Shown: positions 24,590-62,267 of the stretch, piece after piece
How the letters are laid out: each line of letters begins with the position of its first letter
How positions within the stretch are numbered: the first letter of the stretch is position 1
Assembly (NCBI GenBank): GCA_963662335.2
Contig: CAXXVD010000003.1
Span: 448,001-512,000 of the forward strand
From: Chloroflexota bacterium
Lineage (GTDB): Bacteria; Chloroflexota; UBA11872; VXOZ01
Length of the DNA: 64,000 nt
Direction of reading: 5' to 3'
Notes under the pieces: generated by a model
The model's input: only the letters and a program-made list of their open reading frames with translations
Told to the model about the DNA's origin: nothing
The model's database searches: none
Program-made: the position numbers and the translations under genes

Positions 24590-24663
24590 TGCCCCTGGCG
24601 GGACTCGAACCCGCAGCCTCCCAGTTAGCAGCCGGGCGCTCAATCCAATTGAGCTACAGGGGC
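24590..24663 (-). tRNA. Class I tRNA with anticodon GCT (Ser by anticodon, Arg-like body)
   Basis: GCCCCTG-TA-GCTC-AATTGGATT-GAGC-G-CCCGG-CTGCTAA-CTGGG-AGGCT-GCGGG-TTCGAGT-CCCGC-CAGGGGC-A; all stems pair; CCA is not encoded. Confidence 0.9.
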
Positions 24664-32358: not shown

Positions 32359-32587
32359 GCGGGCGCGTTCTTTCGTCTTCTCTGCACGCGCATCGTTCGC
32401 TCTGAGCCTGTCGCAGGGTGAACGTGGTCTGGGACTGCAAGCTTCGGCTAGACTGGGCCAGCAGGCGGAAAGACGCCCCAACGTTGTCGCATAAACGTAG
32501 CGCGGGGGCTTGTCCCCCGCCGGGAGCGCTGGGAACTGCGGTCAAGTCAGCAGATACAGGCGCACGAAGCGTCGCCCCTGCCGCGCC

Positions 32588-32607
32588 GCAGGTTGCAAAC
32601 CTGCGCT
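32588..32607. repeat. Palindromic repeat family G (GCAGGTTGCAAACCTGCGCT)
   Basis: Second copy at about 52253-52272. Confidence 0.7.
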
Positions 32608-32659
32608 ACCGGCCCAGACGTTAGGCGAATTGTGGAAAGGGCTCGTTCCGGGACAAGCC

Positions 32660-33415
32660 ATGAAGCGCGCACTCATCATCCGCCACGCAGAGCCGGAAAC
32701 CCTCGCCGCCAACTTCAGCGGCGTGTTGGCGCGGCACGGCTTTCACCTGGAACCACTCAACGTCTTCGAGGCGGCGCCCGCCTTCGACCGCTTTGCGCCG
32801 CCGCCTTTGCAGCGGGTGGACCTCATCGTGGCGTTGGGCGGCCCGCAGTCGGCCAACGACGACTATCCGGCCATTCACCACGAGCGCGCTTATCTGCGCC
32901 GGGCGCTGGACGCGGGCACGCCGGTGCTGGGCGTCTGCCTGGGAGCGCAAATCATGGCCACGGCCCTGGGCGGCACGGTGGAACCGACCGGCGGCTACCA
33001 GTTCGGGCTGCGCCGGCTCTCGGTGACCGCCGCCGGGGACGCCGACCCGGTCTTTGGCAAACTGGCCATTCCGCTCGTGCCCACCCTGCACGGGGAGTGT
33101 TTCTCCATCCCCCAGGGGGCTATCCGGCTGGCGGAAGGGTACATGCTCCGGCGCGACGGCAGCTACCGCAGAATCAACATGGCCTTTCGCTACGGCAATT
33201 CCTACGGCTTCCAGTTCGAGCCGCAACTGACGCTGGAAGAACTGCGGGTGTGGAACCGGGAACTCGCCGGCGACTACGCATTGATGGGCGACCGCTTCGA
33301 CCCCCACGAGGAAGCGTCCCGACACCTGCGCGAGTTCGCCCGCTACGAACCCCACTACCGGGAGCAGATGGCCAACCTGCTAACGGCCTTCCTCCACAAC
33401 GCGGGCCTGGCGTAA
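32660..33415 (+). CDS. Class I glutamine amidotransferase-like protein with an altered catalytic motif
   Basis: LGGPQS and VLGVCLGAQ present, but QFEPQ replaces QFHPE. Confidence 0.88.
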   Translation: MKRALIIRHAEPETLAANFSGVLARHGFHLEPLNVFEAAPAFDRFAPPPLQRVDLIVALGGPQSANDDYPAIHHERAYLRRALDAGTPVLGVCLGAQIMATALGGTVEPTGGYQFGLRRLSVTAAGDADPVFGKLAIPLVPTLHGECFSIPQGAIRLAEGYMLRRDGSYRRINMAFRYGNSYGFQFEPQLTLEELRVWNRELAGDYALMGDRFDPHEEASRHLREFARYEPHYREQMANLLTAFLHNAGLA

Positions 33416-33490
33416 GGCCGAACTTTCCCCTCACCCCGGCCCTCTCCCGGCGGGAGAGGGAGATTTGAAGCGGCCGGCCCTGTGCATCGG

Positions 33491-33520
33491 TAGACAACGC
33501 GCTCGCCCGTGGTGTATGAT
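33491..33520 (+). promoter_or_regulatory. Sigma70-type promoter of a small transcript
   Basis: TAGACA-N18-TATGAT. Confidence 0.65.
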
Positions 33521-33525
33521 GGGTG

Positions 33526-33670
33526 GCAAGAGAAAGGAGGTGATGCCCATGGATGTAAGTTGTAGATCCAGGGCCGCCTCCGCTAAGTCTCGGTAACGAG
33601 ACCGCGGAGCGGCCGTTGGACAATGAAGGAGCGCTCACGGCGCACGTGCGCCGGGCGCTCCTTTTGTTTT
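33526..33670 (+). ncRNA. Putative structured small RNA or micro-ORF transcript with an extended Shine-Dalgarno
   Basis: AGAAAGGAGGTGAT, a 15-aa ORF (33549-33596), a long GTAA-capped hairpin and an intrinsic terminator with U-tract. Confidence 0.6.
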
Positions 33671-33700
33671 GCTCACGTGAAACGTTTGAGGGCGCGCGCG

Positions 33701-33928
33701 TCACTCGGCGAGCAACTTCATGAGTTCGCGGTTTTTCTCTAGGCTATCCCGGAAGTGCGCCATGACTTCGGGACGGGGTGTGCCGTGTCCGCGCGCAGCG
33801 ATGTAGGAGCGTAGGGCAACTTCCAGTACATCCTCGAATCGCCGACCGTCCTGTCTGGCAAGCGTGTGCAAAGCGGCAAGCAACTCAGGGTCAACCTCGC
33901 TGGTGAACTGCTGGCGTTTCTTGGACAC
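33701..33928 (-). CDS. Ribbon-helix-helix antitoxin-like protein (Doc-partner-like), no adjacent toxin gene
   Basis: GGAGG RBS and GTG start; FTSEVDPELLAAL..LA and terminal NRELMKLLAE. Confidence 0.65.
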   Translation of the reverse strand: MSKKRQQFTSEVDPELLAALHTLARQDGRRFEDVLEVALRSYIAARGHGTPRPEVMAHFRDSLEKNRELMKLLAE

Positions 33929-34036
33929 GTCTGCCTCCGCAAGATTGCAATTGGGGCGGTTAGCGAACCATCGCTGTGCCTGCCCGCGCACTTAGAACAA
34001 TTGAATCAGCCGGTTAGGCTACCTTTCCAGTGTAGA

Positions 34037-34951
34037 CTATCTGGCCGGCGGCGGATAGGTCGGTTTGCTCTCGTACGGCTCCCCGCCGGTGCGGGTGAAG
34101 AAGCCGGTGGTCTGGCTAAAGCCGGCGTCTTTGGCGTAGATTTCCAGTTCCGGCGCGCGCAGGTTGCCGAGGTTGTCGCGCACGGCGGCGATGTTCGGAT
34201 ACGTGGCGGCGACCGTGTGCTCGTCGATGCGAAAGGCGTTGGCCACCGCGCTCATGGCGTCGGTGGCGCGCTCGGCAAAGGTGTACTTGACCTTGAGCGT
34301 CACCGGGCCTGCCAGCTTCAGGGGTTGCACCACGCCGATCTTGCCCAGCGCCCGCACCGCGCCCTCTGCCGCCGCCTCAGCCGCGGCCTGGGGCGTCATC
34401 GAGATGGCGCTGAAGTGGCTGGTGCCCTTCTTCACCGCCACCGTCTCAATGCCGGGTACCAGGTCCGCCGCTTCCAGGCAGGCCCAGTAGTCGCCGGTGT
34501 TGAGCACCGCCGGCACGTCGTGAATGCCCGCGAACGCCACGAAAATGCCGATTTCGCCCACCAGCAGGTCATTCAGCCAGATGCCCTCCACCGCGCTGTA
34601 GGCGCGAGTAATTGGATGGGGAAGAATTGAATGCCGCCAGCAGCCTTTCTCGCGGTTGCCGGCCATCTCGTGGAAACCAACGAGCATGCCGGCGTCGAAA
34701 GTCTCATCGAGCAGTTCCGTGAAGATGTCGTGGCGGGGCAGGCCGTGGATGATCTGCACCGGCTTGGGCAGCTTGTGGTACTCCATAGTGTGGATGGTGT
34801 TGAGGACGATCTCGCTGACGCCGTTGTCCAGCAGCGCCTCGCAGATCGCCGCTAACTCCATGGTGGCGTATTCGCTGGCGTTCAGGTAGCCCTCGCGCCG
34901 GTTGAAGACGCCGGCCACGCCCTCCTGGTCGGCAAAGATGTAGATCTTCAT
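34037..34951 (-). CDS. M55 (DppA-like) D-aminopeptidase
   Basis: MKIYIFADQEGVAGV, VGFH, GEIG, TGD and VAVKKG. Confidence 0.9.
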   Translation of the reverse strand: MKIYIFADQEGVAGVFNRREGYLNASEYATMELAAICEALLDNGVSEIVLNTIHTMEYHKLPKPVQIIHGLPRHDIFTELLDETFDAGMLVGFHEMAGNREKGCWRHSILPHPITRAYSAVEGIWLNDLLVGEIGIFVAFAGIHDVPAVLNTGDYWACLEAADLVPGIETVAVKKGTSHFSAISMTPQAAAEAAAEGAVRALGKIGVVQPLKLAGPVTLKVKYTFAERATDAMSAVANAFRIDEHTVAATYPNIAAVRDNLGNLRAPELEIYAKDAGFSQTTGFFTRTGGEPYESKPTYPPPAR

Positions 34952-62190: not shown

Positions 62191-62267
62191 TGGCCTCCCT
62201 GGGGCGACTCGAACGCCCGACACGCAGTTTAGGAAACTGCTGCTCTATCCAACTGAGCTACAGGGAG
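62191..62267 (-). tRNA. tRNA-Arg(CCT)
   Basis: Complete cloverleaf, anticodon loop TTCCTAA, A20 in the D-loop and encoded CCA. Confidence 0.96.

Follow-up and report, generated by a model that had tools for sequence, protein, structure and literature searches.

Why should a bacterium place the strongest Shine-Dalgarno (SD) sequence of its genome in front of an open reading frame (ORF) of just 15 codons, which can be expected to escape gene callers? This question is raised by a locus on the plus strand of a 64,000-nucleotide stretch of DNA (hereafter the window) from a Chloroflexota bacterium, comprising positions 448,001 to 512,000 of contig CAXXVD010000003.1 in GenBank assembly GCA_963662335.2. 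A previous reading of the window, made from its letters only (the sequence-only reading), had listed a promoter, an over-long SD, a short ORF, stems and a terminator at this locus, all of which are present where it placed them, and had proposed either a 30S-binding small RNA (sRNA) or the messenger of an unknown micropeptide. The evidence presented here falls between these two proposals, since among 65 relatives the ORF, its frame and its stop are kept but the peptide is not, and we put it at about an even chance that the element is a translation-coupled RNA switch, or riboregulator, rather than a micropeptide gene. Two features that the sequence-only reading did not mention are central to this notion, namely an internal anti-SD strand (33571-33581) able to close the ribosome binding site (RBS), and the competition of the long hairpin for this same strand, which would create a switch in a family that spans two phyla.

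Anatomy of the locus

The element is made up of the following parts.

33491-33671, plus strand: whole unit, comprising promoter, S1, 15-codon ORF, two hairpins and terminator
33491-33496, plus strand: -35 box TAGACA, from promoter scan and genus alignment
33515-33520, plus strand: -10 box TATGAT, from promoter scan and genus alignment
33531-33544, plus strand: S1, extended SD AGAAAGGAGGTGAT, a 14-nt complement of the 16S 3' tail by sequence match
33545-33574, plus strand: hairpin 1, GCCC-A-TGGAT / ATCCA-GGGC, enclosing the start codon, from folds
33549-33596, plus strand: mini-ORF of 15 codons (MDVSCRSRAASAKSR) plus TAA stop, with ATG at 33549-33551 and TAA at 33594-33596
33571-33581, plus strand: S2, internal anti-SD strand GGGCCGCCTCC, with S1 or S3 as partner
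33572-33614, plus strand: hairpin H2 (conformer B, SD open) with S2 as its 5' arm, from fold, paired changes and family covariation
33604-33614, plus strand: S3, the 3' arm of H2 (GCGGAGCGGCC), an SD-like anti-anti-SD strand, from fold, alignment and covariation
33626-33671, plus strand: intrinsic terminator, consisting of a hairpin (33626-33665) and a TTTTGTTTT tract, from fold and conservation with paired changes

The two promoter boxes are separated by an 18-nt spacer and match 10 of 12 consensus positions, and they form the sole promoter-like site in 2.4 kb (32400-34800), where shuffled sequences predict 0.2; judging by the promoter spacing, transcription would start at approximately 33526-33528. 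The terminator hairpin is GC-rich and is followed by TTTTGTTTT; it was missed by a simple terminator scan, and its support comes from the fold and from conserved paired changes. The genes found 3' of the element lie on the minus strand and are thus convergent with it, no co-oriented gene follows, and with a conserved promoter and a terminator of its own the unit is, as had been claimed, self-contained and not a leader. The locus hence looks like an autonomous RNA gene of about 145 nt, as predicted from its sequence. This 145-nt RNA has a minimum free energy (MFE) of -74.5 kcal/mol (z = -6.0), and none of 200 shuffles is as stable.

The single 16S gene detected in the genome ends in ...GGATCACCTCCTTTCT, and since AGAAAGGAGGTGAT is its exact 14-nt complement, the complementarity noticed previously holds for this genome's own 16S 3' end. 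The 11-mer AAGGAGGTGAT occurs just three times in the 3.23-Mb genome, namely at this site, antisense of the 16S end, and once without a following start codon, and it is therefore the 15-codon ORF that owns the longest SD of the genome. The third copy, on contig C5, was considered as a second element and rejected, as it lacks both a start codon and the architecture of the element. The ATG of the ORF is positioned 8 nt past GGAGG, and a further ATG in the same frame, at 33543, lies too near the SD to serve as a start. The extended SD stands in a genuine context for ribosome binding.

Three strands with mutually exclusive pairings

The anatomy described above is shared by the 65 unique family members that were compared. 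S1 is an invariant GGAGGUGAUG, and GGAGGTGATG is present in all of the 68 family matches in which S1 was checked, including ones that had not been selected by pattern. S2, of the form GGGCAUCACC(GG/UCC), is complementary to S1 and lies inside the ORF; in one member (L072) its sequence, CGUCACCUCCUUUCU, reproduces the 16S tail almost perfectly. At least 8 contiguous nt of S2 are complementary to S1 in 49 of the 65 members as opposed to 13.7% of shuffles. S3, finally, is a downstream copy of S1, and it pairs with S2 to form H2. In an alignment fitted to the model's own structure 91.2% of the H2 cells are paired, all 12 pairs have changed on both sides and none of 500 shuffles scores as high, while slid controls reach 35-42% paired. 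The sequence-only reading had suggested that structure and peptide be compared by means of a covariance model; the structure covaries, whereas the peptide is not conserved in Chloroflexota.

The pairings S1:S2 (fold A) and S2:S3 (fold B) are mutually exclusive, the SD being closed and S3 free in fold A, and the SD being open in a long unstructured leader in fold B. Energetically the two are nearly balanced; the energy of A minus that of B has a median of -2.1 kcal/mol (interquartile range (IQR) -5.2 to +2.7), and the two lie within 3 kcal/mol of each other in 19 of 49 members. For the RNA of the window the values are -74.1 (A) and -74.5 kcal/mol (B), and which of them is the MFE fold depends on the ends chosen. 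Here hairpin 1 is extendable into conformer A, in which the SD is closed, by pairing of GGAGGTG (33536-33542) with CGCCTCC (33575-33581), such that GGAGGUG-AU-GCCC-A-UGGAU is joined to AUCCA-GGGC-CGCCUCC. The apical loop of H2 is GTAA and carries the TAA stop at 33594-33596. This loop had been described as of the GNRA type, which is correct for the window but does not hold as a conserved feature, as the corresponding loops are CTAA in L020 and GTTAC in L025.

An intrinsic terminator is found 3' of H2 in the family folds inspected, and inspection of some members by eye revealed no antiterminator pairing between S3 and the terminator. Likewise, no Rfam aptamer was found in the window or in the element region. 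Some lineages have a 5' extension or hairpin of about 35 nt before S1, whereas the leader of the window has just a few nt in this place. In L065, L054 and L071 a small hairpin containing ACCUCC is found approximately 15-45 nt 5' of S1, which provides one more anti-SD-like strand that could pair with S1 as well.

Constraints on frame, stop and peptide

The start codon lies 8 nt past GGAGG in 59 of the 65 members and is ATG except for a GTG in two of them (L173 and L179), it is usually followed by A/U-rich codons, (GAU)AGUAGUAA, and the ORF spans 12-23 codons in all members but one (64/65). The distance from the AUG to S2 is distributed over the three frames as 45:6:14, and in the main class it is limited to 21, 24, 27 and 30, which corresponds to insertions and deletions of whole codons. 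In 62 of 65 members H2 contains the stop codon, whose median fractional position of 0.55 (IQR 0.52-0.64) corresponds to the apical loop, and in 37 of 49 members the stop is found 8-13 nt past the CCUCC-equivalent of S2; S2 would consequently sit relative to the last sense codon about as an SD sits relative to a start codon. The identity of the stop is biased as well, with 39 TAG, 21 TAA and 5 TGA compared to TGA ending 98 of 199 long flanking ORFs, the associated p = 2e-10 being inflated by the non-independence of the relatives.

The encoded peptides differ freely among Chloroflexota, as illustrated by MDVSCKSRAASVRSR, MDSSSSLVGVTGKSVR, MDASSSRYGPWASPEGTS, MDECRSSSTLAHLRGES and MSSKRMGVTAGEAR. 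S2 is read in three frames depending on the lineage, giving G-I-T, A-S-P or H-L, and paired changes in the stem alter the residues. Family peptides are rich in serine (18.9% Ser) without being conserved, and that of the window, MDVSCRSRAASAKSR, is hydrophilic. Translation of the ORF looks real, but selection is unlikely to act on the peptide, because the ORF, its frame and the position of its stop are conserved while the peptide is not.

Conservation and distribution

The conservation among relatives called for by the sequence-only reading is indeed found, as each of the 16 other genomes of the genus contains one full-length copy of the unit with 82-89% identity (E 2e-46 to 3e-63); in the genome of the window it is likewise single-copy. 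In the resulting alignment of 17 sequences the flanks are unalignable and the element is nearly invariant. This applies in particular to nearly the whole -35 box, where T-GACA is invariant in 17/17 and only the second base varies, 15 sequences having A and two (L021 and L025) having G, to most of the -10 box, and to the first 70 or so transcribed bases. Only two variable sites are found in the 5' part, both in the loop of hairpin 1, whereas H2 and the terminator vary by paired substitutions such as C-G to U-A.

A long form of about 210 nt that shares the 5' end occurs in a neighbouring family of the same class. A pattern scan with AAGGAGGTGATGCCNATGGA over 185,579 species genomes returned at least 119 stretches; among the matches listed Chloroflexota predominate (Thermomicrobiales, Chloroflexia, Ardenticatenia, Anaerolineae, Caldilineae, some Dehalococcoidia, and Thermobaculum), Moorena and other cyanobacteria are found as well, and the rest are apparently chance matches preceding ordinary or hydrophobic ORFs. 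A covariance model, R1, was built from 24 Chloroflexota sequences. At E<=0.01 it matches 63 of 151 Chloroflexota genomes (43 of 97 genera) and 82 of 101 genomes of the cyanobacterial order of Moorena, but this threshold is too lax, as 23 of 101 genomes of a Bacillota control are matched too. The safer threshold is therefore 28 bits, at or above which R1 finds 35/151 Chloroflexota genomes, 61/101 cyanobacterial genomes and 0/101 Bacillota genomes (best 27.3 bits). Positive genomes almost always have exactly one match, and in some Chloroflexota families R1 finds the element in every genome sampled (9/9, 9/9, 6/6, 5/5 and 4/4).

The Rfam search that had been proposed was carried out, and no family matches the element. 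With Rfam 15 at gathering score the whole window yields nothing beyond two tRNA genes located elsewhere (24590-24663 and 62194-62267, both on the minus strand), and these are its only Rfam matches; at E<=10 the element region gives five chance-level matches, all of them far under gathering. Rfam matches over the element are likewise absent from 4 long-form loci, 18 family loci and 11 cyanobacterial loci. Identity with a housekeeping RNA was considered and rejected, since the transfer-messenger RNA and the signal recognition particle RNA sit elsewhere in the genome and the element does not have the architecture of 6S RNA; the Rfam 6S model RF00013 has no match in this genome, the same model being positive in just 5 of 14 control genomes.

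Outside the two phyla a few loci should be mentioned. Two Bacillota loci, L209 (1501-1595, minus strand) and L210 (1501-1600, plus strand), are sub-threshold R1 matches with 27.3 and 25.8 bits, and have a strong SD and an ORF of 6-10 codons that occupies the 5' arm of a long hairpin and ends close to its apex. It is possible that the two are analogues from a further phylum. A full-scoring member (40.1 bits, ORF MDSSYYYQRKTWVEVSTK; L095 / L207) is found in a metagenome-assembled genome labelled Bdellovibrionaceae, and either it was transferred or the contig is mis-binned.

Neighbouring genes

No constant neighbouring gene was found across 65 Chloroflexota loci, the largest downstream cluster consisting of four loci. 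The commonest neighbour is a LysM lipoprotein gene, present upstream in 11 of the 65 loci from diverse lineages (L054, L086, L087, L096, L146, L163, L164, L167, L168, L169 and L180), in which the element is preceded, at 60-290 nt and on the same strand, by the end of a small gene whose product carries a C-terminal LysM domain. In all three loci of one Thermomicrobiales/Chloroflexia subgroup (L043, L060 and L122) dxs, encoding DXP synthase, is found 3' of the terminator on the same strand, and in this subgroup the promoter is located about 40 nt 5' of S1, such that the RNA has an extra 5' hairpin. In L059 (3844-5009, Caldilineaceae) and L075 (6486-7576, Anaerolineae) the element adjoins a group of seven tRNA genes together with the gene for RNase P RNA, each of them encoded on the other strand.

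Within the genus of the window the gene order is approximately the same: a GATase-like gene precedes the element, and a Peptidase_M55 gene, encoded on the opposite strand, comes after it. A 176-aa ORF that covers the element on the minus strand (33174-33704) was dismissed as a shadow ORF, since it has no Pfam match and shows no similarity to the minus-strand ORF found at the equivalent position in L010. A 96-aa minus-strand ORF (33701-33991), which belongs to no Pfam family, ends 30 nt from the terminator of the element, and the two may share this terminator bidirectionally.

The cyanobacterial form

In cyanobacteria the element is about 220 nt long. It shares with the Chloroflexota form S1, the AUG at 8 nt, GAUAGUAGUAAA and the pairing of S2 with GAUGCCCAUG, and the cyanobacterial R1 sites also have GAUAGUAGUAA in common along with S1, AUG and S2. 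What it adds is a long rod, the 5' strand of which is the ORF, with the stop at the end of this strand, and the 3' strand of which contains a conserved CU-rich stretch, GUUCCUCCCGGCAG. In 13 of 14 newly fetched loci the ORF is 23-24 codons long, and the encoded peptides have the form M.DSSK.MG....RLCAGAVL. In the remaining locus, L203 from genome G246, the difference of a single base moves the ORF into another frame with the RNA sequence preserved, and 34 codons are read up to a TAG further on, which may reflect genuine variation or an error of assembly. The element is often located between a psbA-like gene and a gene for pterin-4a-carbinolamine dehydratase, and as psbA is multi-copy, we think that this neighbour explains why many matches lie a few hundred bases from contig ends.

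We believe these cyanobacterial matches to be ncl0160, a Synechocystis sRNA (Mitschke 2011, as cited) whose homologs are widely distributed in cyanobacteria (Brenes-Alvarez et al. 2016, PMC4734099), the identification following from the matching description in that paper. According to it, the homologs have an ORF of 23-25 aa with an ATG or rarely a GTG start and an RBS in every case, the stops are 47 TAA, 34 TAG and 2 TGA among 83 homologs, and the authors consider the RNA likely to be translated into a small peptide (PMC4734099). The likeness to the present family lies in the wide conservation, the RBS before the start, the tiny ORF and the stops being nearly all TAA or TAG (21 TAA, 39 TAG and 5 TGA here), as well as in the fact that R1, a Chloroflexota-only model, finds one match in 61-82 of 101 cyanobacterial genomes. 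The window form differs in having about 145 nt, a 15-codon ORF and an unrelated peptide as compared to about 220 nt with a longer rod-like helix, and the conserved 23-25 aa peptide reported for ncl0160 has no counterpart in the window (15 aa) or in Chloroflexota at large (12-23 aa, unrelated). In addition, the paper proposes a peptide, and what is accessible of it describes no switch (PMC4734099). If the identification is right, ncl0160 provides an independent hint of expression for the cyanobacterial form. Apart from this, no description of the element was found in the literature on Chloroflexi sRNAs, anti-SD sequences and short-ORF RNA motifs; searches for anti-anti-SD sequences returned riboswitch papers only, and peptide and nucleotide strings returned unrelated primer matches. 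The accessible parts of a non-coding RNA survey of 50 genomes (PMC11109978) and of a paper on cyanobacterial small proteins (PMC5126843) contain, respectively, no Chloroflexota entry and no ORF of this kind.

A proposed translation-coupled switch

From the observed anatomy, covariation, and frame and stop constraints we infer a cycle of transcription, translation, refolding and output that may run as follows. S1, which comprises the extended SD and the stretch reaching to the start codon, would have two alternative partners, the 16S 3' tail in trans and S2, a mimic of this tail, in cis. Fold B would present an idealised initiation region whose S1 is captured by a 30S subunit, and the ribosome would then translate the ORF of 12-23 codons along the 5' arm of H2 and thereby unzip it. 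When the ribosome terminates at the stop in the apical loop, S3 would still be covered, while S2, trailing the stop by some 9-12 nt, would be emerging at the platform beside the 16S tail; S2 could then re-pair with S1, and the RBS would be shut (fold A). Once the ribosome has gone, S3 would recapture S2 and reset the RNA. The outcome would be a self-limited translation by one ribosome at a time and a fold that depends on translation, and what is selected would be the engagement of the ribosome and the resulting refolding, not the peptide. The most likely role of the RNA is to report on or buffer translational capacity through its fold, its stability and the exposure of its 3' strand, and RNA stability, 3'-strand exposure and ribosome titration could all serve as outputs. 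Pure sequestration of 30S subunits, as suggested by the sequence-only reading, is conceivable as well.

Several observations are in poor agreement with this switch. The best contiguous match between S1 and S2 is just 6-7 nt in 16 of 65 members, fold A is 11 to 26 kcal/mol less stable than fold B in L026, L028, L098, L126 and L184, and the long forms have a much weaker A pairing. The stop is not placed inside a hairpin of at least 8 pairs in 3 of 65 members, and even within the genus it is lost in L025 and L134, which leaves a frame of 43 codons extending across the terminator. Cyanobacterial peptides are conserved to a fair degree, and the peptide may have a function there. R1 furthermore finds no element in certain other families, including two of the window's own class (f4, 0/4, and f6, 0/7), and given this absence from several families of its class the element must be dispensable though widespread. 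As to the nature of the evidence, the S1:S2 pairing cannot covary because S1 is invariant, the support for H2 comes from an alignment already guided by the proposed structure, the relatives are not phylogenetically independent, such that the Fisher and mod-3 figures overstate significance, and the promoter, the transcript ends and translation itself are all deduced from sequence.

Among the alternatives, the notion that the element is a genuine micropeptide gene, with a functional peptide of 15 aa (23-25 aa in cyanobacteria) whose translation is tuned by the RNA structures, deserves the closest attention. It is in agreement with the conservation of start, RBS, frame and stop, with an N-terminus M-D/S-x-S-S/K that recurs with synonymous variation (GAT/GAC, AGT/AGC/TCG, AAA/AAG), with the mutual likeness of the cyanobacterial peptides, and with the view of the 2016 authors that ncl0160 is likely translated into a small peptide (PMC4734099). 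We nonetheless find it rather unlikely, since past the first 4-5 residues the Chloroflexota peptides have no common sequence, charge or length and S2 is read in three frames, since residues simply follow the changes of stem pairs (A-K to V-R in the genus and RLCAG to ELSSG in a cyanobacterium), since the cyanobacterial L203 retains the RNA sequence but shifts the frame, and since, in the genus, third codon positions show the same invariance as the first two. It might also be imagined that the functional part is the 3' strand of H2, from S3 onward, acting as a base-pairing sRNA on other RNAs and being single-stranded only while a ribosome opens H2 or while S2 is held by S1. The freedom of S3 in fold A, the CU-rich stretch in the cyanobacterial 3' strand, which is resembled by the anti-SD seeds of known sRNAs, and the occurrence as a lone gene with a terminator and no constant neighbour would all fit; yet in Chloroflexota S3 and the linker vary freely while the pairing with S2 is kept, and no conserved single-stranded seed besides S1 was seen, and this possibility accordingly strikes us as improbable. 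Equally doubtful is the idea, offered by analogy, of a 6S-like ribosome decoy, whose idealised initiation region would park 30S or 70S particles via an 11-14 bp helix with the 16S 3' tail. Such a decoy would shield the 16S tail and withdraw ribosomes when elongation substrates are scarce, and its release would be brought about by translation of the mini-ORF only, with H2 unzipped, S2 stripping the SD off the ribosome and the decoy ending up locked; the unconserved peptide would then be a by-product, like the pRNA made from 6S RNA.

Two further explanations carry far less weight. A short ORF, alternative hairpins and a terminator make up a layout like that of leader peptides, and with dxs co-oriented downstream in 3/3 loci of the Thermomicrobiales subgroup one might suspect a cis-acting attenuator that controls a downstream gene through the terminator. 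For the window this is already contradicted by the convergent orientation of the next genes, and across the family no downstream gene is common to the 65 loci (largest cluster 4) and no S3:terminator antiterminator pairing was seen by eye in the members inspected, which makes such a role very improbable. In type I toxin mRNAs the SD is sequestered by successive internal anti-SD strands, and the sequestration of an over-long SD by S2 is reminiscent of this. Here the peptide is hydrophilic and not conserved, the element is single-copy and vertically inherited across phyla, and a scan of 32400-34800, the only check made for an antisense RNA, revealed no minus-strand promoter; a toxin is thus the least credible of the readings and hardly worth entertaining.

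Significance and comparison with known systems

Whichever function prevails, the element is a single-copy RNA gene common to two large phyla, of which the Cyanobacteria are genetically tractable, and the R1 model can be used for annotating these genes. If ncl0160 is indeed the cyanobacterial form, this orphan sRNA becomes linked to hundreds of uncultured Chloroflexota. Should the switch be real, the translation of a throw-away ORF would flip an RNA structure, and a ribosome-driven class would have to be placed beside the switches that respond to ligands, temperature, proteins and tRNA; it could furthermore reveal how translational capacity is sensed or buffered in slow-growing Chloroflexota and cyanobacteria.

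Parts of the element are reminiscent of several known systems. STAB-SD sequences, known from the cryIIIA literature, are perfect SDs near the 5' end that stabilise Bacillus mRNAs, and in the element, too, an extended sequence almost fully complementary to the 16S 3' end is located near the start of the transcript, where a bound 30S subunit could protect the RNA. A STAB-SD is however found in a long 5' untranslated region without a start codon, whereas in the element an AUG at the optimal 8 nt and an ORF are conserved. Leader-peptide attenuators and erm-type translational attenuation are based on the translation of a short ORF remodelling the hairpins that overlap it, and the short ORF of the element likewise overlaps hairpins that its translation would remodel, but the element has no regulated downstream gene, no common run of regulatory codons and no competition for a terminator strand. 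The likeness to 6S RNA (RF00013) is one of analogy only, in that the element too would be a single-copy housekeeping RNA mimicking the substrate of a core machine and being released by use as a template; there is no match in sequence or structure, and the partner would be the ribosome instead of RNA polymerase. Translational riboswitches such as the thiM TPP riboswitch have expression platforms built from SD, anti-SD and anti-anti-SD, and the element shares with them the three strands whose mutually exclusive pairings set the accessibility of the SD. It differs in that it has no Rfam aptamer, no apparent ligand and no downstream gene, and in that the regulated ORF is itself the 5' arm of the competing hairpin, and it would therefore be the ribosome itself that flips the switch.

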